Below, one piece after another: positions 2,726-28,288 of a stretch of 64,000 nt of DNA. The stretch covers positions 90,526-154,525 of the forward strand of contig JAIETH010000001.1 of NCBI GenBank assembly GCA_019745315.1, written 5' to 3'. The stretch comes from Patescibacteria group bacterium. GTDB lineage: Bacteria > Patescibacteriota > Minisyncoccia > Phycocordibacterales > UBA918. Positions within the stretch are counted from its first letter, which is position 1, and every line of letters begins with the position of its first letter. The translations under genes were made by a program, and so were the position numbers. The notes under the pieces were generated by a model. That model searched no databases, was not told the origin of the DNA, and saw only the letters and a list, made by a program, of their open reading frames with translations.

Positions 2726-2851
2726 ACGGTACTTTTGACAGAAAATACAGATATGATCTAATTCAGTTAGATCAGTACCCATACGGTTTTCGGTGAAGCA
2801 GGAATATATCCAGCTGTGCTCGTCACACAGTCAGCTTCTCAAAAAAACGGT

Positions 2852-3013
2852 ATGAAAATTTTTAGAGCCGTGGGACTCTTGATTTTCTTGTTCTTTGCGC
2901 AGGTTGTCGTAGGTGAAATGTTCAGAGCTGTCTCGAGTGCCGTTGTTGCAACTCTTGAGACACTTGAAACAGCTTCACATACAGCTACTGTGCAATTACA
3001 GAAAATCGAATAA
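2852..3013 (+). CDS. Possible small secreted/membrane protein (53 aa)
   Basis: 'MKIFRAVGLLIFLFFAQVVV...' has a signal/TM-like N-terminus. It is followed by a clean hairpin+T terminator at about 3022-3050. The RBS is weak. Confidence 0.25.
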   Translation: MKIFRAVGLLIFLFFAQVVVGEMFRAVSSAVVATLETLETASHTATVQLQKIE

Positions 3014-3066
3014 CCCACATACAGCGCCAGAATATTCTGGCGCTTATGCGTATGTGATATACTATT

Positions 3067-4116: not shown

Positions 4117-4513
4117 ACACTTCTTAGATTCATTTCTCAAACTCAATCATACGTCTCCGACGATGAGTGATGAGGAAGTGTCGGCGGTTCTGAGTAAAGC
4201 GGGGTGGTCAAAATCTGAAATTGATAGTGCTCTTATTCTTCTTCAGAAGGGAGCGGTTCCTACTAGTTCACAAGGTAACGTACCATTTCGCCCTGATATG
4301 GAATTTTCTCCGTCGCAACTCTCGAGTCTTCTTGGTGTTGATGTGAAGCTTGATCCAAGTATTATGCGCGGAGCGAGTGCTTCGATTGATGGGCGAGAGG
4401 TTGTAGTCCGGACATTTTTTGGTTTTGGTATCGTATTGGTGTCGCTTTCCATTGCAGCTCTCATAGGTTTGGGGTCTATGCATTTCCTCGAGATCGGTCC
4501 ATTCGCACGATAG
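4103..4513 (+). CDS. Hypothetical protein with C-terminal TM helix
   Basis: Internal ATG of the 3977 ORF, chosen to avoid overlap with the transporter. C-terminal 'FFGFGIVLVSLSIAALIGLG'. Confidence 0.4.
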   Translation, partial: DMLDRHFLDSFLKLNHTSPTMSDEEVSAVLSKAGWSKSEIDSALILLQKGAVPTSSQGNVPFRPDMEFSPSQLSSLLGVDVKLDPSIMRGASASIDGREVVVRTFFGFGIVLVSLSIAALIGLGSMHFLEIGPFAR

Positions 4514-6183: not shown

Positions 6184-7431
6184 ATGAGTACAAAGCCAGT
6201 TTCTTTTACTGTTGTACAAAAGATACCAAAGAGCTTAGGGCGCGCGGGCGTTATTCATACGCCGCATGGTGATATAGAGACACCTGCGTTTGTAGTGGTT
6301 GGTACGAAAGCAAGCGTAAAGAGCTTGATGCCTGAAGATTTGCGTCAGTATGTAGGGAATCAGGTAACGCTTGCAAACACCTATCATTTATTTTTGCAGC
6401 CAGGACACGAAGTGGTGAAGGCGGGAGGGGGATTGAATGCTTTTGCGCATTGGGAGACACCAACAATGACTGACTCAGGAGGGTTTCAAGTATTTTCTCT
6501 TGGGGCTGCGTTTGGAAAAGGTGTAACGAAGTTTGCGAAAGGTGACGTAGAGACTGAGCTGCCTGCGCGCGCTGAACTCAATGTCTATAGTGAAAAGCAT
6601 GCCGCAGATCATGGCAAGCTCTGTCAGATTGACGAAGACGGAGTGACGTTCACCTCACATATTGATGGCTCGCTTCATCGATTTACCGCAGAGCGATCTA
6701 TTGAAATTCAACATGCGATTGGAGCGGATATTATTATTGCATTCGATGAATGTACGTCGCCAACAGCTGATCGCGCATACCAAGAAGAGGCAATGCATCG
6801 CACACACCGCTGGGCGAAGCGCTCTGTATTGGCTCATAAACAGAATTATGAAGCGTTAAAGAAGCAAGGGCTCTTTGGTGTCGTGCAAGGTGGTCGCCAT
6901 CTTGATTTACGTGCTGAAAGCGCTCGCATATTGGCATCCATGGATTTCGATGGCTTTGGTATTGGCGGATCTTTTTCAAAAGAAGATCTCGGAGATTCTT
7001 TGCGGGTAGTGAATGAAGTCTTGCCAGACGATAAGCCTCGGCACCTCCTTGGTATCGGTGAGCCAGAAGATATTGTTGAAGGTATTTTACAAGGATGCGA
7101 TACGTTTGATTGTGTCCAGCCGACGCGCATTGGACGCACAGGAACCATCTATGTGCATACCGGAGCTATGAAGACGACTCCCTGCGGCACATTTACCTAT
7201 CCTGAAACAAAAAAGATTAGCGTTAGAAATGAGCAGTATAAAACTGATCATTCTCCACTCGACCCACTCTCAGACGGGTATGTTGCCCAGAAATATACAA
7301 AAGCGTACCTCGCACACCTTTTCCGCGCAGGAGAAATCTTGGGTCCTCACCTCGCATCAATTCACAACCTCTATTTCATAACGAACTTCACTAAAAATTT
7401 GCGAAAACAGATTTTAGAAAAGAGCGCATAG
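6184..7431 (+). CDS. tgt: Queuine tRNA-ribosyltransferase
   Basis: 'LANTYHL', 'LLGIGEPEDIVEGILQGCDTFDCVQPTRIGRTG' are TGT catalytic and zinc-site regions. Confidence 0.85.
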   Translation: MSTKPVSFTVVQKIPKSLGRAGVIHTPHGDIETPAFVVVGTKASVKSLMPEDLRQYVGNQVTLANTYHLFLQPGHEVVKAGGGLNAFAHWETPTMTDSGGFQVFSLGAAFGKGVTKFAKGDVETELPARAELNVYSEKHAADHGKLCQIDEDGVTFTSHIDGSLHRFTAERSIEIQHAIGADIIIAFDECTSPTADRAYQEEAMHRTHRWAKRSVLAHKQNYEALKKQGLFGVVQGGRHLDLRAESARILASMDFDGFGIGGSFSKEDLGDSLRVVNEVLPDDKPRHLLGIGEPEDIVEGILQGCDTFDCVQPTRIGRTGTIYVHTGAMKTTPCGTFTYPETKKISVRNEQYKTDHSPLDPLSDGYVAQKYTKAYLAHLFRAGEILGPHLASIHNLYFITNFTKNLRKQILEKSA

Positions 7432-15721: not shown

Positions 15722-16702
15722 ATGCAGCAGCGCACACGAGTAGTGGTCCTCCGCGGAGGCCCAAGCGAAGAATACGAAGTGTCTCTTAAGACGGGGCAGG
15801 TCGTTATTTCTGCTATTAATACAGAAAAGTACGATGTCCTTGATGTGGTTATAACAAAAGCAGGGGAATGGCTCTTGCGTGGCATGTTACGCGAGCCGCG
15901 CGATATTTTGAGTCACGTTGATATTGTGTTTCTTGCACTCCATGGTGGGTATGGTGAAGACGGAACTGTGCAGCGCTTGATCGATTCTCATGGTGTGAAA
16001 TATACCGGTAGCCGCGCATTTCCTTCGGCGATGGCATTCAATAAAGCAATGACCAAAGATCGGATGAAAGATAAGGGGATCAAGATGGCGCAGCACATGA
16101 TTGTAGGGAAAGACATGCTTCCGAATCTGCATGGCACTGTTTCAGCGATTTCTGCACTCTTTGGCCCTCGCTATATCGTAAAGCCTATCGCAAGCGGCTC
16201 TTCAATCGGAACTATTTTTGCTGAAAGTCCTATCATGCTCGAACAAGCACTTCGCACGGCGCTCGGTGTCTATGACCAAGTGCTTGTCGAAGAATATATC
16301 GCAGGCAAGGAGGCAACCTGTGGTGTTGTTGAAAACTTCCGTGGCAAGAATCACTACGCATTACCACCCATTGAGATTGCGCACACCGGGGACGTATTCG
16401 ATTATCAAGCAAAATACGGCGGAGGTACTGAAGAAATTTGTCCGGGACGATTTTCTCGTGCTGAAAAAGAAGAGATCGAGAGTCTTGCTATACTTGCACA
16501 CACTGAGCTCGGACTTTCACACTACTCACGATCAGATTTTATTATCGCGAACGATGGTATTTATTTTCTTGAGGTGAATACGCTTCCTGGGCTCACGACT
16601 GAATCCCTTCTTCCAAAGTCTCTTGAAGCGGTGGGATGTTCCTACAGTGATTTTATCGAGCATCTCCTCATGCTCGCTCATCGTCATCCACGAGGTATCT
16701 AA
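15722..16702 (+). CDS. ddl: D-alanine--D-alanine ligase
   Basis: 'RVVVLRGGPSEEYEVSL' N-terminal domain, ATP-grasp core, and C-terminal 'FLEVNTLPGLT'. Confidence 0.9.
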   Translation: MQQRTRVVVLRGGPSEEYEVSLKTGQVVISAINTEKYDVLDVVITKAGEWLLRGMLREPRDILSHVDIVFLALHGGYGEDGTVQRLIDSHGVKYTGSRAFPSAMAFNKAMTKDRMKDKGIKMAQHMIVGKDMLPNLHGTVSAISALFGPRYIVKPIASGSSIGTIFAESPIMLEQALRTALGVYDQVLVEEYIAGKEATCGVVENFRGKNHYALPPIEIAHTGDVFDYQAKYGGGTEEICPGRFSRAEKEEIESLAILAHTELGLSHYSRSDFIIANDGIYFLEVNTLPGLTTESLLPKSLEAVGCSYSDFIEHLLMLAHRHPRGI

Positions 16703-16705
16703 TGT

Positions 16706-17023
16706 ATGCGCTCACTCATTCCAAAAAAGAAAGGTCGTTTTTCAAAAGATGATGCAGAAAAGCATCTACAAGCTCTTTCTGGGTGGCATGTGAATCCAAC
16801 GCATACAATGATTTCAAAAATATTTATTTCTCAGAACTTTATTCAAGGTCTTTCCTTCATAGCAAAGATTGCAGTGCATGCTGAGGTGCTTGGTCACCAT
16901 CCTGATATTGAACTCTCGTACGGAAAGGTGGTAGTGAAGCTCACGACCCATGATGCAGAAGGGTTAACAAAGAAAGACTTTGAACTGGCGGAGCGTATAG
17001 AGGGGTTACGGCAAGAGCGGTAG
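16706..17023 (+). CDS. 4a-hydroxytetrahydrobiopterin dehydratase (PCD/DCoH)
   Basis: Signature 'AEVLGHHPDIELSYGKVVVKLTTHD' matches the E-x3-HHP-x5-Y-x3-V-x3-L-T-TH pattern. Confidence 0.85.
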   Translation: MRSLIPKKKGRFSKDDAEKHLQALSGWHVNPTHTMISKIFISQNFIQGLSFIAKIAVHAEVLGHHPDIELSYGKVVVKLTTHDAEGLTKKDFELAERIEGLRQER

Positions 17024-17257: not shown

Positions 17258-17330
17258 GGGCCCGTAGCTCATCTGGTAGAGCGCCTCACTTGCACTGAGG
17301 AGGCGGCAGGTTCGAGTCCTGTCGGGTCCA
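17258..17330 (+). tRNA. tRNA-Ala (anticodon TGC)
   Basis: Cloverleaf with acceptor GGGCCCG/CGGGTCC and a G3:U70 Ala identity pair. D-arm GCTCATCTGGTAGAGC. Anticodon loop CTTGCAC. T-arm GCAGG-TTCGAGT-CCTGT. Discriminator A. CCA not encoded. Confidence 0.9.
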
Positions 17331-17343
17331 CTGATATACAAAA

Positions 17344-17367
17344 CACCGGCTTTATGCCGGTTTTTGT
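17344..17367 (+). terminator. Rho-independent terminator after the tRNA (caccggc-tttat-gccgg + TTTTTGTG)
   Basis: GC-rich hairpin plus T-run 14 nt after the tRNA. Confidence 0.55.
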
Positions 17368-17407
17368 GTATCAGGTTGGGTGACCAGGGACTCGAAAAGG
17401 TTGCCAG

Positions 17408-19057
17408 CTATTTATTTTTAAAATAGCGACAACCTGTACTGAACATGTAATGTTCGAGTCCTGTCGGGTCCACATCGTCAGAGTTTTGTTCGCAAAACTC
17501 TTCAAATATCCTTGCAGTACTTAGTGAATCAGAGGTTCGAAAGGCCTCTGATTTGCTGTATGTCAGACGGCTATCAAAAAGGAAGAAAAAGAGCCTCTGT
17601 TGTTCTATTGGACTCACAGAATCCCAGATCGTTATTGGGCTTTTGAGCATCTTCGTTGCTTTATCAAAGGCGGTTCGAAATGGAACTTTTAGGTCCCCAT
17701 TTTGTCCTGGCTTCATATCTTTGAGTTCTTTCGCCAATTCTTCGATCCTTTTCTCATATTGTTCTCGCACAAGATCACTTCGAGTCCTCGATGCGCTGTC
17801 AGTCAATTCTCTAATTTCTTGTTCGATCCTTTCGCACTCCCTAGCATTTGCTGTTTGCTTGCTTCGTAAATCATGAACTTCTTCCTTCCACACACGACTG
17901 AAGGTAAGATCGAGGATCTCATCCATCTCTTGCTTGATCGCGTTGCGTTTTACCAAAGCGCGAAAATCTTCCTCAATCTTCTTTCTCTGAATAGCCTTTG
18001 ACCTCAATGAACATCCCTTGTGGATGCAGTAGTAATAGTAATAAGGATTCTTTTTGTGGTTGCTTGATCGAGCCGCAGTCAATTTGCTCTTACACTCTGA
18101 ACAAAGCACTAATCCACGCAAAGGGAATTCCGGAGAAATGTCCTGGCGAACCCATGCTTTAGAAGAATCCTTTTGTAAACGTCGTTGAATCTTTTCAAAT
18201 GTTTCTACAGAAATGATCCCTTTATGCTTTCCAGGTCGTCGGGCTACACCCCATTTTGGATATTCAATATCACCGCAGTAGGCGACATCCCTTAGGATAT
18301 TAGAAACATCCGTGAGATGTCCTTCCGCTGTTCTTCTCTCCCAGAATTTATTTTCAAAAAGGAATCGCGCAACATCAATCTGCCTGACAAATATTCCAGA
18401 AGCAAAACCCTCAAGGGCTTCCTTCAAGATCTTTGCATCCTGGTTAGGCACTAGAACTTTTCCATGCAGTGGGTTTTTCACCATATCGAATCCGCGCTTC
18501 TTTCCAAAAGTGTAATAGCCAAGATCGAGCCTGGCTTTCATTTTCTGAATAACTTGTCGCTGGTTTTGTTTACGCTCTAGTTGAGCCTGGCCGGACATAA
18601 TCAGTTCGGCGAATTCACCCTCCGGACTCTCATCAAAATTATAGTTTAGACAACGGAGCAAAACTTGGCGGTTTCTAAATGCCTGCCTTAGTTTGAAATG
18701 GAATTCAACATTTCTTGAAAAACGCTTCAGATCATCAAATACGACTATAAATTTCTTGTGGGGATTTGCATCAATATATCCAATAAGTTCTCTCATTGCA
18801 GGTCGCTTCATAAAATCACCTCCACCCGTGAAAGTGTCAGGGAATGTCTTGATGTAAGGTACTCCGATCAATCGGAGATCATTTACACAGCGTCCTTCTT
18901 GGCTTGTCAGACCGGAGCCTTCCAATTCCTGTTTCTTTGAAGAAACGCGAGCATAAACAAGACCTTCTCTGCCGAGAAAGGGATTTTTGTTTTCTAAATC
19001 TTGGATTATTTCTTTATGGAGTTTTTTTATACTCATATAATTCTTGCCGTATAACAT
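17408..19057 (-). CDS. Large serine recombinase (resolvase/invertase-type N-domain plus recombinase and zinc-ribbon C-domains)
   Basis: 'GLVYARVSSKKQ' catalytic-Ser motif. 'NPYYYYYCIHKGC' zinc-ribbon-like cysteines. About 549 aa, typical of LSR integrases. Confidence 0.85.
   Translation of the reverse strand: MLYGKNYMSIKKLHKEIIQDLENKNPFLGREGLVYARVSSKKQELEGSGLTSQEGRCVNDLRLIGVPYIKTFPDTFTGGGDFMKRPAMRELIGYIDANPHKKFIVVFDDLKRFSRNVEFHFKLRQAFRNRQVLLRCLNYNFDESPEGEFAELIMSGQAQLERKQNQRQVIQKMKARLDLGYYTFGKKRGFDMVKNPLHGKVLVPNQDAKILKEALEGFASGIFVRQIDVARFLFENKFWERRTAEGHLTDVSNILRDVAYCGDIEYPKWGVARRPGKHKGIISVETFEKIQRRLQKDSSKAWVRQDISPEFPLRGLVLCSECKSKLTAARSSNHKKNPYYYYYCIHKGCSLRSKAIQRKKIEEDFRALVKRNAIKQEMDEILDLTFSRVWKEEVHDLRSKQTANARECERIEQEIRELTDSASRTRSDLVREQYEKRIEELAKELKDMKPGQNGDLKVPFRTAFDKATKMLKSPITIWDSVSPIEQQRLFFFLFDSRLTYSKSEAFRTSDSLSTARIFEEFCEQNSDDVDPTGLEHYMFSTGCRYFKNK
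17452..17473. repeat. 22-nt exact direct copy of the tRNA-Ala 3' end (positions 17310-17331). Putative att/integration scar.
   Basis: 'gttcgagtcctgtcgggtccac' occurs twice. The second copy lies inside the last codons of the serine recombinase gene on the opposite strand. Confidence 0.8.
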
Positions 19058-19271
19058 TCCGGCACAATGACTCTATATATTCTAACCTTTTTAGAATGAC
19101 TTCATCCGGCGTTTTGTAGTCTTTCAAGGACTTCCGGTATTCAGCAATCGAGACTAGAGGTTTCTCTTGAGAAGCCTCGACTATTTCTGGATTTCCCTCG
19201 CCAACCCTATTCATGGCGGTAGGGATCCTCCATTTCAGAGGCTCGAATAGCGAGTGACACCAAGGATCCAA
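19014..19271 (-). CDS. Hypothetical small protein. Overlaps the recombinase start and the upstream ORF in another frame.
   Basis: 85-aa ORF translationally coupled to the recombinase. No family recognised. Confidence 0.35.
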   Translation of the reverse strand: MDPWCHSLFEPLKWRIPTAMNRVGEGNPEIVEASQEKPLVSIAEYRKSLKDYKTPDEVILKRLEYIESLCRNVIRQELYEYKKTP

Positions 19272-19539
19272 TACAGGTCGCTTGCTGGGGGGTCATAGGA
19301 TCCGTCCTGACCCTGTTTATCGTGTCCTCAAGAAGAACTAGCATCTCGGATGGACGCCTCACTGGAAGCCGTTTTAGTGGCTTTCCAGGCCTTCTAGTCT
19401 TAGGGGATGATCCTCCTTTCCGGACCGCAATTCCACGGGCTTCCGCTGTACTTGGATCATGGGTAAAGCAAAACTCCCGACCATGTAGCGCGTAGGCCTT
19501 GCATCGACTGTCTTCTTTTGTCTTGTGGATACAGCGCAT
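19207..19539 (-). CDS. Hypothetical small Cys/His-containing (Zn-finger-like) basic protein, possibly a recombination directionality factor or regulator
   Basis: 'CIHKTKEDSRCKAYALHGREFCFTH' C-x9-C...H-x4-C-x2-H pattern. Basic, Pro/Arg-rich middle. Preceded by a roughly 270-nt structured leader. Confidence 0.35.
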   Translation of the reverse strand: MRCIHKTKEDSRCKAYALHGREFCFTHDPSTAEARGIAVRKGGSSPKTRRPGKPLKRLPVRRPSEMLVLLEDTINRVRTDPMTPQQATCIGSLVSLAIRASEMEDPYRHE

Positions 19540-19843
19540 GAGTTTTGCTTACTCTCGGCGCTACCCACCCACAAAAAATTCGCGAAGATTCGGGTTCGTT
19601 TTTCCTCACTAGAAACGGAAAAGGGACCTGAACCCCCGCGACCGTAGTCGTGGATGAGTTCAGATCCCTTAGGATTCCGAAGCCGAATCAGTCGATTCGC
19701 TTTATCGAGTTTACCTTTGGACCGTGTTTCTCCCGTGGGAAAAGCAAAGCCAAAGACTCAATAGCACTATCAACCTATGCTTATATTCTAACTCGTTGAG
19801 AAAACCTGTCAAAGGTTATTCAACTTGTCAGGCTCCATGAAAA

Positions 19844-20110
19844 CTAAAGGATGCTAATTTTGTCTGCCGCTTCTTCTGTCGATTTTTTGTCGGCAGTAAT
19901 CTTTGACTTCAACTTCACCAACTCCTTTTTGAGCAATTGCTTTGCTCTTTCTTTTTCCTCGGCCGAAGAAAAATGTTTGTTCTCAAACTCTTCGATCTTT
20001 CGGTCCATTTCCTTGAGTTTCTTTTTGTTGGCCACCATAAATATTGGAGCCATAAAACCTGCTAAGAACAGACCGATGAAGATCGCTACTACAAGAATGA
20101 TGATTATCAT
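19844..20110 (-). CDS. Small membrane protein with coiled-coil tail (88 aa)
   Basis: 'MIIIILVVAIFIGLFLAGFMAPIFMVA' TM followed by a K/E-rich helix. Confidence 0.45.
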   Translation of the reverse strand: MIIIILVVAIFIGLFLAGFMAPIFMVANKKKLKEMDRKIEEFENKHFSSAEEKERAKQLLKKELVKLKSKITADKKSTEEAADKISIL

Positions 20111-20356
20111 AAATTTGCTTGATCGACTTCTCTAATAATGCCCGCTAGGTTTTCCGTTTACACACAGAAAACCCGCCACGGGTAGGAGCCGAAGCCCCTC
20201 GTACAGGTTTCCCCATACGGCGATCAAGCAACCCCATGACGGGTTTTCTATGCTTGATCGACTTTTGACCATACCTTTGACCGGAGTCAAAGGGTTAGGC
20301 CCAACATATTCAGTTGTAAATACATTATACGATATTTTTGATTCCACTTACAGACT
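20111..20356. repeat. Structured non-coding region. Contains the 14-nt direct repeat 'tgcttgatcgactt' (20116-20129 and 20251-20264), an inverted 10-nt copy (20221-20230), and additional perfect hairpins (e.g. 20274-20293).
   Basis: Repeats and palindromes read directly from the sequence. No convincing ORF. Confidence 0.5.
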
Positions 20357-20404
20357 ATGCGAACAAGTCTAGAAATGGTGGTGTTTTTGTACTATAATGA
20401 ACTC

Positions 20405-21400
20405 ATGGCAAAGGCTACTAAAAAGAAAGCCGCACTAAGCCCTATTGAGGCCCTTGAAGCCTCAAGAAATAGCAGGGTGATTGTTTATTTTACAGGGGAC
20501 AGAAAACCTCAACCGTTTTCAACATTGGTTGGTATTGATGTACTCCCTGCATTCAAGGCTGTTCTCAAAAAAATTGGTAATACAAAAAAGATCACACTTG
20601 CCCTCTACACTAATGGGGGACATTTGGATACTCCTTGGCCTCTAATACATTTGATCAGGGAACACGCTGAAGAATTCGAGGTGCTTATTCTTGAGAAAGC
20701 ATTGAGCGCTGGAACTATGATTGCCCTAGGAGGCGATAAGATTGTCATGACGCCTCATTCTTTTTTGAGTCCTATTGATCCTGCAACCAATTTCCAAGAC
20801 GAGGAAAATCAGAAAATGAAGCGTTTTGAAATTGAGGATGTGATTGGGTATATAGATTTTGTTAGAGACAGAATCGGGATCACTGAACAACAGGCTTTGA
20901 TGGAAATCATGAAAGATTTGACTAAGGAAGTAAATCCTACTCGTCTTGGGTCTATTCATCGTACCCATGCTTTGGTTAGACGATTAGCAACAAAACTACT
21001 ATCGCTCCACAAAGAACCAGTGTCCGAAAGACAGACAAAGGAGATTATTGATCATTTGGCTCAAAAACTTTTTTCTCATAGTCATTTGATAAACAGGAAG
21101 GAAGCAAAAGAGATTGGTTTCGATAACATCATTGAATATGCCGATAAAGCAACTGAAAAGGCGGCTGATAATTTGATGACATACTATTCAGACTATCTCA
21201 AAATCGATGAGGAGTTTGAGCCTCTAAAGGAGATTGGCGAAAAAGAAGTAAAGAAAGAAATTCCACTAAGTCTAGCCGTAGTTCACTCCAAAGATCTCAA
21301 GTATGACTTCAAGGCAAATTGCGTAATTACAAAAGCCCCAGATCCAAACGGAAATCCTGGGATCAGAGTCGATATGAAATCTAAGTGGGAAAAAATATGA
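20405..21400 (+). CDS. ClpP/SppA/SDH-superfamily serine peptidase (crotonase-fold protease)
   Basis: 'LSAGTMIALGGDKIVMTPHSFLSPIDP' matches the ClpP-like G-x-S-x-G ... P motif pattern. About 330 aa with a non-protease C-terminal extension. Confidence 0.6.
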   Translation: MAKATKKKAALSPIEALEASRNSRVIVYFTGDRKPQPFSTLVGIDVLPAFKAVLKKIGNTKKITLALYTNGGHLDTPWPLIHLIREHAEEFEVLILEKALSAGTMIALGGDKIVMTPHSFLSPIDPATNFQDEENQKMKRFEIEDVIGYIDFVRDRIGITEQQALMEIMKDLTKEVNPTRLGSIHRTHALVRRLATKLLSLHKEPVSERQTKEIIDHLAQKLFSHSHLINRKEAKEIGFDNIIEYADKATEKAADNLMTYYSDYLKIDEEFEPLKEIGEKEVKKEIPLSLAVVHSKDLKYDFKANCVITKAPDPNGNPGIRVDMKSKWEKI

Positions 21401-21639
21401 AATACAACTCTCAAACAATATCAATAGGCAGTGATAGACAGAATTTCAAGACAAGCCTTGAAATAGCGGGTAATTTGAATGTTGGAGGAATTGTATATTC
21501 TACGCGACAAAATGGGTGGTTCATACAAACACAAGGTCCTGAAATAAAAAAGAACGAGCCATCAGGAGAATATGTAGAACTAAGTAAGGAAGAAGAAAAG
21601 AAGTTCTACAAGAAAGCCTTGGAGAAGAAACTTCTGTAA
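21397..21639 (+). CDS. Hypothetical small protein
   Basis: ORF overlapping the protease stop by 4 nt (operonic). K/E-rich C-terminus. Confidence 0.35.
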   Translation: MKYNSQTISIGSDRQNFKTSLEIAGNLNVGGIVYSTRQNGWFIQTQGPEIKKNEPSGEYVELSKEEEKKFYKKALEKKLL

Positions 21640-21642
21640 ATT

Positions 21643-22146
21643 ATGTATGCGGAACAAGGCCTACTCGATCCAACAACGCTTTACCAGGGAGATCTCATAG
21701 AAGATTTTCCTTTTCATGACCTTGATTCCCATTCTTCTGTAGTTAGAAACGAGAGTGGTACCCTAGTTGAACAAGCCACAGAGGATCAAAACTATCTTGC
21801 TCTCATTGAAACAAAGAAAAGGACAGTGATGATACTATCTCAAACTTGCGATATACAAAGGCGTACCCATGTCATTGTTTGTCCTATTTTCGATCTTCAA
21901 GAATACAGTAGAACTATCTCAAGGGATAAAGTTGAGGCTCTAAAAAAGAGAACAATAAACTATCTTTTTTATCTTCCCGCACATGGTAATTTTCAGGAAT
22001 CGTTTGCTGATTTACAACAGATTCACTATGTACCTCTAGAAACCATGAACTCCTACAAAGACAAGAGGGTTTTATCTTTGAGTGATTTGGGGAGACATCA
22101 TCTTTCTTGGTCCTTAGCATCTTTGTTTGGTCGGCCAGCATCGTAA
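21643..22146 (+). CDS. Hypothetical protein (167 aa)
   Basis: Begins 4 nt after the previous ORF. No recognisable motifs. Confidence 0.45.
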   Translation: MYAEQGLLDPTTLYQGDLIEDFPFHDLDSHSSVVRNESGTLVEQATEDQNYLALIETKKRTVMILSQTCDIQRRTHVIVCPIFDLQEYSRTISRDKVEALKKRTINYLFYLPAHGNFQESFADLQQIHYVPLETMNSYKDKRVLSLSDLGRHHLSWSLASLFGRPAS

Positions 22147-22522
22147 GTCTAGTTCTATATCCCTATTGTGGTAGTTGGATTGAAAGATCTCTAAGAAAAT
22201 TCAAGCGCTCTTTGAAGCGTAGGGCTTGATTGGTAGTACTCCCAAAAGCGAGATAGGTAGGTTTTCAGGTGGTTCGAAGTTTTATATACTGTGTCCACAA
22301 AATACGAAATAATCTCCCAAACGGGAGATTTTTCGATTTTGTGGAAAGCGCAGCCATATCGCTTTTGCGATGGCGAGCTGGGGTCGAGAGCACTTAGGCT
22401 TTTGTGAATACTTGGAACAAAAGACTTAGTGACTCGTGACCACTGGTGGAAGCCAAGGTGCGCTCGCGGAAATTTTGCCTAAAGCAAAATTATCTGTAAC
22501 CACAAAAAAGAGCGTTTTGTAT

Positions 22523-22867
22523 TCACGCTCTTCGTCTTCCGGCTTCTTCTCGTTCGAGTATCTCCTCATATTCTGCAGTGACGGTCTCCACATCATCTGG
22601 TTGTATAACCAGTGCTGCAATTAGGTCTCGTGCACGCATCTGGAGAAAGAAAATGGTGGGCAGTGATTTGCCGATCGCATACCTGACCACTGCCTCATGA
22701 ATTTTTCCAGCTACCACATACGCACTCATGTAGTATCCTGCGATAGAAAAGAACTCAGGAAAAAGGTCTTCCGGCAATCTATCCAGATCGGCACTCCCGA
22801 GAGAGATGCATTCAAGCTTATCTTTCATCTCACGGAAAGGGTGCAGTCGAATCAATCGTGATGCCAT
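22523..22867 (-). CDS. Hypothetical protein, GC-rich cassette
   Basis: Start set at the internal Met 'MASRLIRLHPF...', chosen on composition alone (the stretch upstream of it in the ORF is AT-rich); no RBS was checked. GC-rich third positions. Hairpin+T terminator downstream on the - strand. Confidence 0.4.
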   Translation of the reverse strand: MASRLIRLHPFREMKDKLECISLGSADLDRLPEDLFPEFFSIAGYYMSAYVVAGKIHEAVVRYAIGKSLPTIFFLQMRARDLIAALVIQPDDVETVTAEYEEILEREEAGRRRA

Positions 22868-23029: not shown

Positions 23030-23464
23030 ATGGCTCAAGGAGAAAAAATACTCCTTCTGGACGGAGAGAAGTCGAGGCGTGAAGGAATTGCTAAGCTTCT
23101 CACGGAATGGGGTCATAGGGTTGCTGCGGAGCGGTGTCCTGATACGGCGTGGCGATTGATTGAGCAGTACCCGAACTCCTTCACTGTTGTCATCGCTCCC
23201 GCCAACACGTCGCGTGGTAGCGGCACTGACTTCCTGGCTCGTGTTTCGTCTGGGATGAATACGCCGCCCCACCTGATCGCTCTGTGTGTCGCCCTCCATC
23301 ACTATCGGCGATATCTGCCGGATGTGATTGCGGACTTTGGGGGACACTGCGTTTCTGCGACCTGGCTTTGTGATGACGGAACGAACTACCCGCATCTCCG
23401 GGGTGTGATCGAAAACCTGAAGATACGACCCATTCTCTCGGTGACCGATACCAAAGACCACTAG
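23030..23464 (+). CDS. Receiver (REC)-like domain protein, degenerate (pseudo-receiver?)
   Basis: 'KILLLDGEKSRREGIAKLL...' has CheY-like N-terminal topology, but the acidic pocket and phospho-Asp are not conserved. GC-rich. Confidence 0.45.
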   Translation: MAQGEKILLLDGEKSRREGIAKLLTEWGHRVAAERCPDTAWRLIEQYPNSFTVVIAPANTSRGSGTDFLARVSSGMNTPPHLIALCVALHHYRRYLPDVIADFGGHCVSATWLCDDGTNYPHLRGVIENLKIRPILSVTDTKDH

Positions 23465-23488
23465 GTCTTCTGTATCGGTCTTTTTTAT
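23443..23488 (+). terminator. Hairpin (gaccgatac...gtatcggtc) plus T6 terminator of cassette 1. The 'TTTTTTATTTCC' motif is shared by the following cassettes.
   Basis: Seen directly. Analogous hairpin+T-run elements follow each of the seven cassettes. Confidence 0.6.
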
Positions 23489-23507
23489 TTCCAATTTCAG
23501 AAGGCAC

Positions 23508-23536
23508 TGTACAAAAACATATTACATGGTATAATT
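23508..23536 (+). promoter_or_regulatory. Sigma-70-type promoter for cassette 2: -35 'tgtaca', 17-nt spacer, extended -10 'TGGTATAAT'
   Basis: Read from the sequence. The same 'tatggtataa' element recurs upstream of cassettes 1, 4 and 5 and other genes. Confidence 0.45.
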
Positions 23537-23583
23537 CCTGCCGGATTTGCACCCGCAAGTCTCTCAGTATTCGGAGAGCCATA

Positions 23584-23967
23584 ATGGCACAAGCAAGGAT
23601 TCTCTTGGTTGAAGATGAACGGTTTTTGCGGAGCATGTACACTATGCTCCTCGAAGGGGCAGGTTATGAGGTTTTCTCTGCCGTAAACGGCGAGGAGGCA
23701 GAGGAAAAGCTGGAGCTCGGATCTTTCGATTTGATCTTGAGCGACAACAATATGCCGTTCAAGGATGGCGTGGATGTGCTTCGGGCTCTTCGCGCGGCAG
23801 GGAATGCCATCCCATTCATCCTTATGAGCGGGCGTCCTTGGCTTGATGACGGTACTGGCCTCGAGGATTTGTGCGCGTCCCACGGGGCGCAGTTCATCCA
23901 GAAGCCTGCTCAGAACAAGGTCCTTCTCGCCGCCATCGAGGAGATGCTCGCAGCCAAATCGGCATAG
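23584..23967 (+). CDS. Single-domain response-regulator receiver (CheY-like)
   Basis: 'RILLVEDE', phospho-acceptor context 'FDLILSDNNMP', and conserved 'T/S' and 'KP' ('FIQKP') positions. Confidence 0.85.
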   Translation: MAQARILLVEDERFLRSMYTMLLEGAGYEVFSAVNGEEAEEKLELGSFDLILSDNNMPFKDGVDVLRALRAAGNAIPFILMSGRPWLDDGTGLEDLCASHGAQFIQKPAQNKVLLAAIEEMLAAKSA

Positions 23968-24124
23968 GTTTCAAGATTGAGGAGTACCCGGGTGGACATG
24001 TGTCCATCCGGTTTTTTATTTCCATTCTCAAATACTTGCAATAGCTCAAATTATATGTTCCAATGCGTTTAGAGTCACACACAAAATCGTGTGAGTGGCA
24101 AAACCAAAACTGGAGGCTCATACA

Positions 24125-24508
24125 ATGAAGCGAATCTTGATTGTTGAAAGTGACGAAGCTCTTGCGGCAGAGCTGACAGAGATGCTGAAGGAGCATCTCG
24201 TGGTGACGGTGCCGAGCACTGTCACTGCATGGGTGTTGATCGAGGAAGGGCCGCCGTTTGATCTTGTGATCACGGATGTCGACAAGATCTCCGAGATGAG
24301 CGGGGTCCAGCTTCTCACGAACATGAAGGCGCAGTCTGTACCGAGCGCATGCGTGCTCATGAGCAGCGGCACCCACCACGACGGACAGTTCCTGCCTGAT
24401 ATTGCCCACAGGCTCGGCATCGAATTCATGCTCAAGTCGAGTATCCGCATTCGGTTTGTTCTTCCTCTCGTGGAGCGCCTTCTTGGTGTCACACGCGCCG
24501 CGGCATAA
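24125..24508 (+). CDS. Single-domain receiver (REC)-like protein
   Basis: 'RILIVESDE', 'FDLVITDVD'. Start taken at the internal Met. Confidence 0.6.
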   Translation: MKRILIVESDEALAAELTEMLKEHLVVTVPSTVTAWVLIEEGPPFDLVITDVDKISEMSGVQLLTNMKAQSVPSACVLMSSGTHHDGQFLPDIAHRLGIEFMLKSSIRIRFVLPLVERLLGVTRAAA

Positions 24509-24566
24509 GCCGCACCAATCCCTCTCCGCTTGCGAGTGGGATTTTTTCATACCCGGATACAAAATA

Positions 24567-24596
24567 TTGCAATTATTGTATTTCTATGGTATAAAA
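24567..24596 (+). promoter_or_regulatory. Promoter for cassette 4: -35 'ttgcaa', 18-nt spacer, 'TGGTATAAA'
   Basis: Read from the sequence. Confidence 0.4.
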
Positions 24597-24644
24597 CAGG
24601 TGGAAATTTCGCAGCTGTGCGGAATTCAGTGAGGGGGAAGTAGC

Positions 24645-25034
24645 GTGGCAAAAACCATTTTGGTCGTTGATGATGATGACGGCGTCCGCGAAGAGCTCGC
24701 GGAACTGATCGAGCTTCCGGGGCGGATCATCGTGATCGCCAAAAATCCGGAAGAGGCCCTCCGGCTCATCGATGGGGGTCTCAAGCCCCACTTGATCATC
24801 TCCGATCTCAACATGCCGCCGTATATGGACGGCTTCACCATGTTCATGGTGATTCGCCGCCTCAAGCGGTTTCCGTTTAACTTCATTCTGATGAGTGCGA
24901 GAGATAATCTGGACGGGGTGTCGCTCGCGGAGCTTTCGCGCAGGTACTCGTTCGAGTTCATCAGCAAGGGCTCTCTCCGAGGATCAGAGATCCTTCCGAT
25001 GGTCGCGCGCCTCCTCGAGAGTCTCGAGGTCTGA
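24645..25034 (+). CDS. Single-domain response-regulator receiver (CheY-like)
   Basis: 'ILVVDDDD', 'HLIISDLNMP', 'FISKG'. Confidence 0.85.
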   Translation: MAKTILVVDDDDGVREELAELIELPGRIIVIAKNPEEALRLIDGGLKPHLIISDLNMPPYMDGFTMFMVIRRLKRFPFNFILMSARDNLDGVSLAELSRRYSFEFISKGSLRGSEILPMVARLLESLEV

Positions 25035-25100
25035 GGGCCTCTCGCGCAGGTGTTTAAAAACACACCTGCGCTTTTTTATTTTCATACAAAACCATAGAGC

Positions 25101-25131
25101 TTGATAGTGCCATATTTTTATGGTATAAAAT
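25101..25131 (+). promoter_or_regulatory. Promoter for cassette 5: -35 'ttgata', 17-nt spacer, 'TGGTATAAAAT'
   Basis: Read from the sequence. Confidence 0.45.
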
Positions 25132-25179
25132 ACTTCAGAAATTTCGCCCCACGGCGACATCCGCAGGAGGTCAACCAAA

Positions 25180-25635
25180 ATGGCTCGTGTGCTCTGCGTA
25201 GATCCAGAAAACGAAGAATTGATAGTGCAGGTGATCCGAGGGATCGCTGATCACGGTCACACCGTGCATATGGTCCCGAGCCTTTTTCAAGTGCCCATCA
25301 CCGTGAGTCAATTCTACTTCGATCTCATGGTCGTGGTTGATGACCCTCTCGATTTCGATTTCGAGCGGCTCAAGGTTTTTCACGCAGCTCGATGCCGCGT
25401 GATTCCTCCTGACAATCTTCCACTGCCGCATCTTCTCGTCGTGTGTCCGGTGAGCATTCCTCCTCCTCGAGTGTGGAAGCTCAACTCACTCCGCATGCAA
25501 GTGCGGGAACCAACAAGTTACGTGGTGCTGGGGAAGAGCGATCAAAAACCCTGTCCGCTCTACGAGCACTTGAAGCCGCTCTTTCCGTCTGTTCTCCCAG
25601 AGCACACGCTCTGGACAGAACCTGTCCAAGCCTGA
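25180..25635 (+). CDS. Receiver-like domain protein, degenerate
   Basis: 'RVLCVDPENEE', 'FDLMVVVDD'. Pro-rich C-terminus. GC-rich. Confidence 0.4.
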   Translation: MARVLCVDPENEELIVQVIRGIADHGHTVHMVPSLFQVPITVSQFYFDLMVVVDDPLDFDFERLKVFHAARCRVIPPDNLPLPHLLVVCPVSIPPPRVWKLNSLRMQVREPTSYVVLGKSDQKPCPLYEHLKPLFPSVLPEHTLWTEPVQA

Positions 25636-25743
25636 CTCTCATCCGCATCTGCGGATTTTTTCTTTATTGCACATACAAATTATTTATGCGATCTTTTTAG
25701 AGGATAGTGCACATCCCGTGCTCACAATCAAAACGAGGGTGTT

Positions 25744-26211
25744 ATGGAAAAAAAGTTCGCACCGAAAGTGTTGATCGTCCATACCAGCGTTTGTGCTCGC
25801 ATATGCATTCGCGTGCCGCTTATGAGAAAGCATCGCGTGCGCGGTGTCAGCTGCGGAGAAACGGCTCTTTCTGTTTTTCGGATGGGTTTTTTTGATCCGG
25901 ATCTGGTCATCATAAACTACGCTCTCTCGAAAGATATGTCGGGCATGAAGCTTCTCGGCGCTCTTCGTGAGAAGACCTCCATGCGCGCAGTTCCTTTTTT
26001 TTCAGGTCCGGTGGTGGTGCTGGGAGCGTCCGAGACCGCAGAGCGTACGAGGAAATTGGAGACGCTCTGCGCACGGCGAGATGCGGTCTATATGTCCAGT
26101 TTCAGCTGCTGGCCGGAAGATCTGGCGAGGCTCGCACGAATCGTTAATGGTCAGCTTGATCCGTATGGATCAGAAGAAGAGGGCGAACGCTCATTATCGA
26201 CGAAAGTCTGA
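25744..26211 (+). CDS. Receiver-like domain protein, degenerate (Asp to Asn at the acceptor position)
   Basis: 'KVLIVHTS', 'DLVIINYAL', 'VVVLGAS'. Confidence 0.4.
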   Translation: MEKKFAPKVLIVHTSVCARICIRVPLMRKHRVRGVSCGETALSVFRMGFFDPDLVIINYALSKDMSGMKLLGALREKTSMRAVPFFSGPVVVLGASETAERTRKLETLCARRDAVYMSSFSCWPEDLARLARIVNGQLDPYGSEEEGERSLSTKV

Positions 26212-26336
26212 AGAGTACCCGAGACATGTTCTCGGTTTTTTTATTTCCCACCATACTCTTGATCCGTATCTTTTTTCATGTCACTATCTTTGCTCGGGGC
26301 GCGCAGTGCGTCCCTTGTTCTTTCCGGGGAAGATTC

Positions 26337-26768
26337 ATGCAACATGTATTGTGTGTGGGAGATGGTCAACATATCGACGCGATGCTGAGGAGCGGCGTCG
26401 AACGCATCGAAGGCCAGACCATCAAGGTGACATCAGTGCAGACGACAGAGGATGCGCTCCTCCATCTGCGTGCCGCCAACGACGAGCCGTGCCTTGTCGT
26501 GATCGCTCTGCCATTTCGCACATGCATGAATTTCATGCGCAGCCTGCGGCAGCCTGATGGAAACAAGCAGCAGCTCTTCGAAGGGCCCTTCGTTTTCGTC
26601 GGGCAGTCGAATGGCTTCATTCGCTCGAGGATGCTGTACAAGTTCGTCGCACTGCTTCACGGCATCTGCTACGACACGGAGTGGACGAAGGTCACTCCCG
26701 TACTCTTCGAGCGGCTCGTCAGGACGCTGCTTGATCCCTACGGCATGCTGTATCAGGAAGCAGCATAG
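26337..26768 (+). CDS. Receiver-like domain protein, degenerate
   Basis: Internal Met 'MQHVLCVGDGQ', 'CLVVIALP', 'FVFVGQS'. Followed by a 'cacacgccccgcgtgtgg'+T6 terminator. Confidence 0.4.
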   Translation: MQHVLCVGDGQHIDAMLRSGVERIEGQTIKVTSVQTTEDALLHLRAANDEPCLVVIALPFRTCMNFMRSLRQPDGNKQQLFEGPFVFVGQSNGFIRSRMLYKFVALLHGICYDTEWTKVTPVLFERLVRTLLDPYGMLYQEAA

Positions 26769-27208
26769 CCTCCCAACAACCCCACACGCCCCGCGTGTGG
26801 TTTTTTATGCTATGTGTTGCGGTTTCAGCATTTTGCTTATAATAAAATTATACAGGATGCAGGGAATAGGAAATCGCCGAACTCTCCTTAGAGTCCGGCG
26901 ATGGCGACAGGAGTGTGTACTCCTAGTCCGCAAGTTGCTTCACTGCGATGAGGTCGAGTGTCTCTCTCAGCATTTGGCCGCTCATGTCCGAAACCTCTCG
27001 GACATAGTCTGCCTGTGCGTTCGTATGAGAGTACTGCTCCCATGCGAACATACCCAGCATTGCAGCAAGAAAGAACATCGCGTATTCGTACTTCACTGTG
27101 ATTCCCCCTCAGGAATGTGTTTTAATATTATACTATTATATTAAATAAAGTCAATAGTCTGTGTAAACGCGTAAATGGCGCGCTTTTGTATTGTATAATC
27201 ATAGCAAT

Positions 27209-28288
27209 ATGTTCCGATGGCTCAAGAAACACTTCATTCCGCATCATGGGAATGGACATCAGCCACACTTTCTTCGTGAAAGAAATATCCGTGCGCTCAT
27301 TGTGGTGGTGCTGGTGGCTGAGCTCTGCCTCCTTGTTTTCCCATTTGTACCAGCCCTTCGCTTTACCAATAGCAACTTCATCACCTCAGTACTTCCTGCG
27401 GTTTTAAATGACCTCACTAACGAAGAGCGTGAGACACAGAGTTTTGCGACACTTACTGTCAATCCAGAATTGAATGCTGTTGCGGAACTTAAGGCGCGTG
27501 ATATGGCAGAAAAAGGATACTTTGCGCATACGAGTCCTGAAGGAAAAGAGCCGTGGTATTGGTTTAACTATGTGGGATATGACTATGAATATGCAGGAGA
27601 GAATCTTGCAGTTGATTTTGTCGACTCAGAAGATGTGACGAAGGGCTGGATGAATTCTCCGACACATAAGGCAAATATTTTGAAAGGGGTATACACAGAG
27701 ATGGGTACGGGTGTGGCAACTGGTATCTATGAAGGACGCGAGACTATTTTTGTTGCACAAGTGTATGCGCGTCCGAAGAGTGCTGCACCAGCCCCCACAA
27801 AGACTGTGGAGACATCTATTCCTGCGGTGGTGCCCTCTGCATCGTCTAACACTGAATCTGTTCCAGCCCCAACGCCACTTGAGGTTTCTGTGCCGGAAGG
27901 TTCAGTGGAAACAATTATTCTCGAAGAAGTGCGTGACGCTGTTGCGGAAGAGCAGGAGCAGACAGGAATTGCATTCGATGTGCCGACAGTGCTTGGTGTT
28001 GATACATCTCAAGCAGGAACGACACAGGCGAGCATGTTTGATAAATTTATTACCTCTCCGCAGCGTGTCGCTAATGGCGTGATCGGATTCCTTGCACTCC
28101 TTCTTGCTGTTGCGCTCATACTTAAGATGCTTATTCGTATGGATAAACAGCATCCTGTCCTTATAACGAACGGTCTTGCAGCGCTCACGATTGTCCTTGG
28201 TGTTTTCACCACTAACACATTTCTTGAAGAGAGGGATCAGGTCGTGACCACATCCTACGCAAGTTTTTACGAAGAAACACTTGAGTAA
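27209..28288 (+). CDS. CAP (SCP/PR-1/YkwD-like) domain protein with N- and C-terminal TM helices
   Basis: 'GYFAHTSPEG', 'GENLA', 'WMNSPTHKANIL' are CAP-domain motifs. Low-complexity Pro/Ala/Ser linker. Confidence 0.7.
   Translation: MFRWLKKHFIPHHGNGHQPHFLRERNIRALIVVVLVAELCLLVFPFVPALRFTNSNFITSVLPAVLNDLTNEERETQSFATLTVNPELNAVAELKARDMAEKGYFAHTSPEGKEPWYWFNYVGYDYEYAGENLAVDFVDSEDVTKGWMNSPTHKANILKGVYTEMGTGVATGIYEGRETIFVAQVYARPKSAAPAPTKTVETSIPAVVPSASSNTESVPAPTPLEVSVPEGSVETIILEEVRDAVAEEQEQTGIAFDVPTVLGVDTSQAGTTQASMFDKFITSPQRVANGVIGFLALLLAVALILKMLIRMDKQHPVLITNGLAALTIVLGVFTTNTFLEERDQVVTTSYASFYEETLE

Follow-up and report, generated by a model that had tools for sequence, protein, structure and literature searches.

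Classical toxin-antitoxin (TA) modules of type II rely on the host proteases Lon or ClpXP, and most type II antitoxins carry a DNA-binding domain. How the antitoxin is removed, and whether proteolysis triggers the release of the toxin, is a long-running dispute in the TA field; the proteases at issue are housekeeping enzymes of the host and act on many substrates, which makes the question difficult to decide. In the type VI system SocAB, SocA delivers the toxin SocB to host ClpXP. The toxin-antitoxin-chaperone (TAC) systems of the HigBA-SecB type have a SecB-like chaperone as their third component, which shields the antitoxin from host proteases, and a preprint reports that TAC systems act in phage defense (bioRxiv 10.1101/2024.02.24.581848). 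Here we analyzed a stretch of 64,000 nucleotides (nt), referred to below as the window, from a Patescibacteria group metagenome-assembled genome (MAG; NCBI locus tags K2X96_00650 to 00660, contig of 315,805 bp). Three consecutive genes of the window, referred to as the triad, encode a ClpP-fold serine protease of 331 amino acids (aa), an 80-aa protein, and a 167-aa protein with the MazF/PemK/CcdB fold.

The block from 17.3 to about 22.4 kb, which holds the triad, a large serine recombinase gene, and a LOOT small RNA (sRNA) gene, was interpreted with moderate confidence as a decayed integrative, temperate-phage-like element at tRNA-Ala that carries a self-contained three-gene TA or abortive infection (Abi) module. 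An earlier reading of the same DNA, made without database searches (the sequence-only reading), had suggested that the block could be what is left of a prophage or else an accessory or defense module built on a protease. Both proposals were partly right, the recombinase and LOOT looking phage-like and the triad resembling TA or defense cargo.

MazEF, PemIK, and CcdAB have the toxin fold and the operon logic in common with the triad. The triad differs from them in that the 167-aa protein gives no PemK_toxin Pfam match, is about 50 residues longer, and contains a long beta-hairpin insertion, in that the small protein has no AbrB, ribbon-helix-helix (RHH), or helix-turn-helix (HTH) domain, and in that a protease gene is the obligatory first cistron. 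TAC systems and the triad both have three components, with a dedicated third protein that sets antitoxin stability (a role proposed here for the triad), but a peptidase in place of a chaperone implies the opposite logic, and no homology was seen between any of the components. Control of a toxin through ClpP-type proteolysis and a small partner protein, again proposed for the triad, is also the principle of SocAB; SocAB, however, uses host ClpXP with the toxin as the substrate, whereas the triad peptidase is operon-encoded and has no AAA+ partner. In the literature searched, no paper was found on a peptidase, whether ClpP-like or Ntn-like, as the constant operon partner of a MazF-fold protein. 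A module with a dedicated peptidase, for which two unrelated folds seem to be interchangeable, would be a genetically separable three-gene system, in which protease, substrate, and toxin can each be mutated alone.

A protease, a small protein, and a MazF-fold protein in fixed order

The two genes said to follow the protease gene were confirmed in the window and are tightly packed: the start of the 80-aa gene shares 4 nt (ATGA) with the protease stop codon, and the third gene follows after a spacer of 3 nt. The mRNA of the triad may be leaderless or nearly so, because the -10-like TATAAT of a promoter-like site ends 7 nt ahead of the protease ATG. In other genomes, the co-occurrence of the three genes was strict. 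Every MazF-like match with a hidden Markov model (HMM) E value below 1e-34 and enough upstream DNA (about 27 distinct contigs) had a protease gene upstream on the same strand, and the gap of 194-280 nt between the protease gene and the MazF-like open reading frame (ORF) held a small ORF. Four MazF-like matches had no protease gene, each with less than 300 nt of upstream DNA. The same pattern persisted in members that were detected only at 1e-21 to 1e-31.

Triads were found in Patescibacteria (Saccharibacteria, Peribacteria, and Minisyncoccia), Clostridia, and Desulfobacteraceae. Between different phyla they were 48%-62% identical and stood in unrelated neighborhoods, and the window protease was 62% identical to a Peribacteria copy at a different locus. 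Local synteny with the window was seen in a Saccharibacteria genome, in which uvrC was 54%, ddl 40%, the protease 62%, and the MazF-like protein 52% identical to the window copies. In locus L001 (L numbers denote the loci that were compared), the triad lies downstream of uvrC and ddl, at a place similar to that in the window. Triad identity does not follow phylogeny.

The neighborhoods of the triads were variable and of a kind typical of defense or mobile regions. Neighboring genes encoded ResIII with an N6_N4 methylase and PDDEXK, DUF2726 (twice), SNF2/ResIII, GIY-YIG, MazG-like, nSTAND3/SLFN-type helicase, HNH, and AbiTii proteins, a type I restriction-modification S subunit, a rolling-circle Rep, and serine recombinases. 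No terminase, capsid, or portal family was listed among the called neighbors at the six triad loci annotated with Pfam. Locus L005 contains three copies of a 92-nt repeat at 2266-4144 (85%-97% identical) and a further 82-nt repeat at 16157-16238; upstream of the triad, these repeats flank a cluster of small ORFs and of genes for GIY-YIG, MazG-like, nSTAND3/SLFN helicase, and HNH proteins, which may consist of repeat-bounded cassettes.

The first gene of the window triad had been described as a ClpP-like serine peptidase in a three-gene operon on the plus strand, and the profile searches agreed. The protein has the ClpP/crotonase fold with a conserved nucleophile serine and scored 49.4 bits against Pfam PF01972 (SDH_protease), above the cut-off of 31.3, and 58.9 bits against the NCBIfam SDH equivalog NF047768, below the cut-off of 250. 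It is a divergent subfamily of the SDH-type Clp-fold serine proteinases. Residues S101, D125, and H225 were invariant in 44 homologs, down to 31% identity. A homolog from Escherichia coli, WP_044064371.1, has the same length (331 aa) and aligned almost fully with the window protease (residues 17-319 of 331, 31% identity, E = 2e-43). It carries the PGAP name "SDH family Clp fold serine proteinase," and 47 of the 5426 complete genomes of E. coli have it. In the plasmid record inspected, NZ_CP081704.1 (L070, 2229-3224), a gene of this type stands alone and in opposite orientation between the Q antiterminator and holin genes of a lambdoid prophage. No published function was found in the literature for the E. 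coli proteinase. More distant homologs (23%-27% identity) were seen in accessory positions of phages; one adjoins a HicAB pair in Porphyromonas phages (L015), and another adjoins the integrase gene of a Burkholderia P2-like phage of the Peduoviridae (L016).

The third gene product displayed the characteristic fold of the MazF/CcdB/Kid toxins. When its structure was searched against BFVD with Foldseek, 11 of the 14 top matches were named PemK/MazF toxin or endoribonuclease. A capsid-like fold had been suggested as something to look for in this protein, and the capsid or scaffold reading was rejected, as the fold searches gave MazF/PemK instead. The MazF-like family comprises about 1000 clusters at 50% identity, and its N-terminal Met-Tyr is invariant. 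Searches with tblastn of INPHARED and PLSDB yielded no match to the MazF-like protein, and IMG/VR yielded no pattern-confirmed match; matches to the protease only did occur, and these were distant and solitary. In L018, a more distant MazF-like member stands next to a PIN-domain gene and lacks a protease gene, its upstream neighbors being two short ORFs that are not annotated, an arrangement that looks like an ordinary TA pair. A MazF-like effector is part of the validated defense system Liu-DS1, a Gabija variant (bioRxiv 10.64898/2025.12.08.692795), which indicates that the fold is used in defense.

These results bear on the proposal that the triad is a set of degraded prophage morphogenesis genes, namely a prohead protease with scaffold or capsid remnants, an outcome that the sequence-only reading had also considered. 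The protease did give weak matches to head maturation families (phrog_1684 at 2.8e-12, phrog 94 and 53, and NF045542 at 36.5 bits), it resembles ClpP-related prohead proteases (S49-like, NF045542) in its ClpP fold and in the residues surrounding the nucleophile, and the adjoining recombinase and LOOT were both seen on phage-like contigs. The NF045542 score is, however, far under the cut-off of 120, the best PHROG is a family of unknown function and not a head protease, the C-terminal region differs from that of the prohead proteases, and no capsid, scaffold, or portal gene was seen beside the triad, nor was a capsid, portal, or terminase family listed at the six loci annotated with Pfam. The third gene has a MazF fold, its relatives were not found in INPHARED or, with a pattern scan, in IMG/VR, and the triad remained intact at 31%-62% identity in about 27 contigs. 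The proposal is thus already contradicted, and we regard it as extremely improbable.

The second gene was conserved in size and position in all triads (33 distinct sequences). The N-terminal motif M.Y.SQT was kept in the main clade, the middle of the protein was variable and rich in S, T, N, and Q, and the C-terminal acidic/aromatic motif took a different form in each clade (EEE..FYKK..T.L, WKKYYKKMGLE, or K.DYRPL.DSDPT). Two variants, in L005 and L008, had Cys-rich N-termini. In layout, the triad corresponds to a type II TA module: a small gene stands immediately upstream of a toxin-like gene, the two are linked in translation, and the DNA around them is mobile or variable. The small protein is a candidate antitoxin or protease substrate.

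Conserved termini around a hypervariable middle, together with the Cys-rich N-termini, could also mark the small protein as a precursor of a signaling peptide or of a product resembling ribosomally synthesized and post-translationally modified peptides, with the MazF-fold protein as an accessory or immunity factor. Against such a role outside conflict, no modification enzyme or exporter was found among the annotated neighbors, and the nearest structural matches of the third protein were overwhelmingly toxins. In a variant of the same explanation, the three are lineage-specific housekeeping genes, for which the place of the L001 triad downstream of uvrC and ddl may be cited. The distribution across phyla is patchy, however, triad identity (52%-62%) equals or exceeds that of uvrC and ddl in the syntenic genome, and triads occur as insertions bracketed by direct repeats at tRNAs (see below). 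Taken together, a role of this kind is very unlikely, and the suggestion that the three are conserved core genes did not hold in view of the cross-phylum identity, the unrelated neighborhoods, and the tRNA-repeat insertions.

At five independent loci, where the MazF-like protein belongs to a sister clade (E = 1e-13 to 1e-33), a gene of a different, 289-aa family takes the place of the ClpP-fold gene. There the 289-aa protein was accompanied by an acidic protein of about 70 aa with an aromatic C-terminal motif (EEYWPF or EKEFIPF) and by the MazF-like protein. The 289-aa family consists of 39 clusters, two of which are labeled as archaeal MAGs, and gave no match in Pfam, NCBIfam, or PADLOC. Its members start with M-(T/S)-I, and D18 and K47 are invariant. 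In a PDB profile search, all of the top 10 matches were proteasome beta-1, at a nonsignificant E value of 0.2. The family aligned end to end (192-197 columns) with a small proteasome-beta/HslV alignment of hand-entered template sequences, with hhalign E values against these templates of 1.9e-5 (global) and 8.7e-4 (local), and T/S2, D18, and K47 fell on Thr1, Asp17, and Lys33 of proteasome-beta/HslV. If the family does belong there, two unrelated peptidase folds occupy one slot beside a homologous pair of small protein and toxin, which would be the strongest argument that proteolysis is the required function at this position.

Recombinase, tRNA-Ala, and LOOT RNA

Mobility was evident at triad loci of relatives. 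In L012, the triad alone occupies the 2,280 bp between the two copies of a 31-nt direct repeat (25 nt exact; 4449-4479 and 6760-6790), which starts within the final 8 nt of a tRNA. No recombinase gene lies inside, an insertion sequence with an rve transposase is located just outside, and the insertion looks like a mini-island needing mobilization in trans. The island of L008 is 5.7 kb long, is bracketed by a 15-nt repeat of a tRNA 3' end, and has housekeeping genes on either side (an AI-2E transporter gene and tilS). Besides the triad, it contains an Xre regulator, membrane ORFs, and a serine recombinase homologous to that of the window (25% identity, E = 6e-24). Homologs of the window recombinase were also present within about 5 kb of the triad in both L020 and L027, and L069 has a different serine recombinase at a like distance. 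The layout of L020 is that of the window, the order being recombinase and LOOT on the minus strand, then the triad on the plus strand.

The gene that heads the window block was verified as a large serine recombinase. All three of its domains scored above the Pfam cut-offs (Resolvase PF00239, 61.7 bits, 1.1e-16; Recombinase PF07508, 34.7 bits, 2.3e-8; Zn_ribbon_recom PF13408, 31.8 bits, 1.9e-7), and it matched the PHROGs integrase family phrog_95 at 1.7e-55. The region of the serine nucleophile motif, YARVSSKKQ, and a coiled coil were present in the ORF. The recombinase has the three-domain architecture, the coiled coil, and the island-edge place by a probable target in common with phage and island large serine recombinases (XisF, CcrB/CcrC, phrog_95), but it is a distant member, well below the cut-offs of the XisF and CcrB/CcrC models (XisF 93 bits vs. 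375), and its gene runs antisense across tRNA 3'-end sequence. No relatives of it were found in IMG/VR. An exact look-up of the 549-aa form gave no match; the annotated form has 542 aa.

The tRNA-Ala(UGC) gene is the probable integration target of the block. The 3' ends of tRNAs are more typical targets of tyrosine integrases. Two matches to the 22-nt tRNA-Ala end were observed, one in the tRNA itself and one in the 3' end of the recombinase ORF, and none of 100 shuffles reached two. The second copy, which reads antisense in the recombinase ORF as VDPTGLE, is a probable fossil of the recombinase-proximal attachment (att) junction of an element integrated at tRNA-Ala. It was read in this way because the recombinase ORF of L008 shows the matching geometry, running antisense into an intact tRNA just as the window ORF runs antisense through the 22-nt copy. 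Both repeats are present at the L008 island; the window recombinase has the one copy in its gene, and no right-hand copy was found. Two short collinear matches at 22552-22597 were tried as a right-hand att repeat and rejected, as they did not exceed shuffled controls. The bidirectional hairpin downstream of the triad was taken as the approximate right limit of the low-GC block. The GC content of protein genes was 36%-42% in the block, 42%-48% in the flanking housekeeping genes, and 50%-56% in the next block (23.0-27.1 kb). The absence of housekeeping genes for about 5 kb after tRNA-Ala had been noted before, and no housekeeping family was found between 17.3 and 27.1 kb.

Between the recombinase and the triad, the sequence-only reading had placed a repeat-rich structured region. 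The region is present, and its identity was corrected to a full-length LOOT sRNA of Rfam family RF03000. The family was traced to Weinberg et al. (2017; PMC5737381), in whose main text no description of LOOT was found, and no prior description of LOOT in the context of a triad, terminase, or serine recombinase was found in the literature. LOOT scored above the gathering threshold within 3.2 kb of a triad at five independent loci (the window, L001, L020, L022, and L023/L069), and most copies are followed by a GC hairpin and a T run resembling a terminator. A pattern scan of IMG/VR followed by Rfam searches identified six further copies on "viral" contigs, none with a triad. By Pfam, LOOT was accompanied by a large terminase, a ParB-methylase, and an HTH_Tnp_1_2 protein in L067; by a DNA methylase, an HTH_Tnp_1_2 protein, and a full three-domain serine recombinase in L066; and by an HTH_Tnp_1_2 protein and a full three-domain serine recombinase, the latter directly divergent from LOOT, in L061.

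LOOT thus resembles an sRNA gene that belongs to the temperate phages or integrative elements of these bacteria, and joint carriage on such elements, rather than control of the triad by LOOT, best accounts for its nearness to the triad. A role of LOOT as a cis-regulator of the triad was rejected, because its placement and strand are not constant (LOOT may be divergent and upstream of the triad, on the same strand and downstream of it, or 1-3 kb distant), a terminator of its own follows it, and the six IMG/VR contigs lack a triad. What the recombinase and LOOT of the window look like is the residue of an integrative element of the temperate-phage kind. In L069, a group I intron (69.3 bits) was detected at 17531-17803 on the minus strand, 35 nt past the stop codon of a 572-aa serine recombinase and about 6 kb from the triad and LOOT, with no tRNA detected around it.

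Proposed toxin control and its alternatives

For the decayed element and its cargo, we propose the following course, in which toxicity, neutralization, the protease substrate, and the trigger are predictions. The large serine recombinase would have mobilized the element and inserted it at the 3' end of tRNA-Ala. The 167-aa MazF-fold protein would be the toxin, probably an endoribonuclease, and the protein of about 80 aa would be the antitoxin, binding the toxin via its acidic/aromatic C-terminal motif. The ClpP-fold protease encoded by the first gene would control the stability of the small protein. Once the small protein is no longer made, or once the protease is activated by a cue from a phage, the protease would remove the small protein and so free the toxin, and the outcome would be an addiction that ties the element to its host, abortive infection, or both.

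A number of observations weigh against this interpretation. The 167-aa protein had no sequence match in Pfam, NCBIfam, or PDB, and its relationship to MazF is structural only; hhalign against Bacillus subtilis MazF gave an E value of 0.18, the PDB profile search was negative, and catalytic residues could not be mapped. The small protein has a low-complexity composition, with no HTH, RHH, or AbrB match in Pfam and NCBIfam scans. The protease family does not always need this toxin, because the E. coli homolog is a solitary prophage gene, with no small-protein or MazF-like partner in the plasmid record inspected. In PADLOC-DB v2, no model matched the three triad genes or the variant triad of the sister clade. 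The assignment of the 289-aa family to proteasome-beta/HslV-type N-terminal nucleophile (Ntn) hydrolases is only moderately supported. At the tRNA, the spacing of 142 nt between the two tRNA-end copies has no explanation in the proposed integration, nor does integration account for the complete tRNA and the 120 nt including a terminator to the left of the putative junction. No repeat marks the right end of the block, where no third tRNA-end copy was found. The simplest guess is that later accretion and decay at a tRNA hot spot produced the left-side arrangement and the unmarked right end.

The roles within the module could also be distributed differently. The lack of a DNA-binding domain in the small protein would suit a type VI-like system, in which the MazF-fold toxin is the substrate of the protease, the small protein is an adaptor, and loss of either adaptor or protease lets the toxin accumulate. 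The invariant N-terminal Met-Tyr of the MazF-like protein could then be a recognition element, and the triad, its conserved order, and the exchange of peptidases fit this arrangement as well as the antitoxin model. The C-terminal motif of the small protein is, however, closer to the toxin-binding tails generally known from MazE-type antitoxins than to a known adaptor, and a two-protein antidote seems less robust for addiction. We consider the type VI-like arrangement rather unlikely.

Another possibility is that the protease acts as a sensor, being inactive until a phage protein switches it on and then cleaving the small inhibitor or the long beta-hairpin insertion of the toxin, which would arm the toxin; its task would then be to sense the phage and not to turn over a substrate constitutively. 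ClpP-fold enzymes of the S49/SDH type are related to prohead proteases, which recognize capsid or scaffold proteins (as in the weak phrog_1684, 94, 53, and NF045542 matches), solitary homologs occupy moron positions in lambdoid, P2-like, and Porphyromonas phages, and triads occur in defense-type neighborhoods. These points are consistent with a sensor, an explanation that we judge unlikely.

The module of a toxin, an antitoxin, and an antitoxin-controlling protease, if correct, can be extended tentatively, at somewhat less than an even chance. The triad would then represent a new class of mobile three-component TA/Abi modules with a cis-encoded peptidase, either a ClpP-fold serine or an Ntn-fold threonine enzyme, as the obligatory regulator, and LOOT would be a phage or element gene and not a host housekeeping RNA. 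With its own protease, such a module would be independent of host Lon or ClpXP, and this independence could explain the spread to reduced-genome Patescibacteria, to other bacteria, and, in the Ntn version, to archaeal-labeled MAGs. The analysis provides the first structural and contextual hypothesis for the MazF-like family and the 289-aa Ntn-like family, both large and unnamed, and adds context for the SDH-type Clp-fold proteinases, including the solitary prophage gene in 47 complete E. coli genomes, whose product is a tractable relative of the window protease. For Patescibacteria, it puts on record elements that carry serine recombinases and target tRNAs, and it connects LOOT, an orphan RNA, with contigs of phage-like character.

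Other features of the window

All features described by the sequence-only reading were recovered at their positions. The MazF fold, the identity of LOOT, the tRNA-end copy within the recombinase gene, and the sister clade with its other peptidase-like protein lay beyond what that reading could detect. They are listed in Table 1 with those added here and with the LOOT copies from IMG/VR.

Table 1. Positions of features in and around the triad-bearing block of the window, and of LOOT copies on IMG/VR contigs
Feature	Position	Strand	Remarks
uvrC, UDP-glucose dehydrogenase-like gene, ddl	ending at 17.0 kb		Housekeeping run, left of tRNA-Ala
Short 105-aa ORF	16706-17023		Left of tRNA-Ala
tRNA-Ala(UGC)	17258-17331	+	ARAGORN; Rfam tRNA 65.6 bits
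Repeat copy 1	17310-17331	+	Last 22 nt of tRNA-Ala; repeat family D8
Terminator-like hairpin and T run	17345-17361	+	Directly after tRNA-Ala
Large serine recombinase	17408-19057	-	549-aa ORF; NCBI start gives 542 aa, 17408-19036
Repeat copy 2	17452-17473	+	Exact 22-nt copy of tRNA-Ala 3' end; within recombinase ORF 3' end
Small ORF, 85 aa	19014-19271	-	Upstream of recombinase; overlaps next; unconfirmed gene
Small ORF, 110 aa	19207-19539	-	Upstream of recombinase; unconfirmed gene
Highly structured leader, 246 nt	19545-19790	-	Between promoter-like site and small ORFs/recombinase
Strong promoter-like site TTGACA-16-TAGAAT	19812-19785	-	11/12 consensus match
88-aa single-pass membrane/coiled-coil protein	19844-20110	-	NCBI name "LapA family protein"
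Terminator-like hairpin of LOOT	20183-20171	-	Own terminator
LOOT sRNA	20184-20301	-	RF03000, 78.6 bits (gathering score 46.4); model positions 1-121 (full length)
Promoter-like site TAGAAA-17-TATAAT	20370-20398	+	Consensus match only
ClpP-fold SDH-type serine protease, 331 aa	20405-21400	+	First triad gene
80-aa low-complexity protein	21397-21639	+	Second triad gene; N-terminal M.Y.SQT, C-terminal EEEKKFYKK
167-aa MazF/PemK/CcdB-fold protein	21643-22146	+	Third triad gene; candidate toxin
Bidirectional terminator-like hairpin	22311-22330		Downstream of triad
LOOT, IMG/VR L058	5520-5654		
LOOT, IMG/VR L061	5001-5120		
LOOT, IMG/VR L062	3685-3809		
LOOT, IMG/VR L065	1843-1957		
LOOT, IMG/VR L066	4755-4867		
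LOOT, IMG/VR L067	2928-3050		

Upstream of the recombinase, the two overlapping small ORFs that had been read as co-transcribed with it are present as ORFs and were not confirmed as genes. They are missing from the NCBI annotation, as the consecutive protein accessions of recombinase and membrane protein show, and they gave no family match in the profile libraries and no homologs in the fetched loci. The stretch between these ORFs and the strong promoter-like site folded with a minimum free energy of -92.9 kcal/mol (z = -4.92), and none of 200 shuffles was as stable; the local GC content is about 50%. It matched nothing in Rfam, none of the fetched loci contained similar DNA, and it could be a regulatory leader or a noncoding RNA of the recombinase operon. 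The coiled-coil membrane protein reported in the block was also found, and its match to LapA_dom (2.4e-5) was below the cut-off.

To the right of the block, a GC-rich segment on the plus strand (23030-27144, 50%-56% GC compared to about 44% around it) contains a tandem array of six to eight short genes, each with its own AT-rich upstream repeat. At least four of these genes encode stand-alone response-regulator receiver domains (PF00072 at 1.4e-18, 2e-7, 1.4e-12, and, weakly, 2.7e-3), which are only 25%-36% identical to one another, with no kinase or output domain visible. The array is followed by a gene for a CAP-domain protein at 27191-28288.

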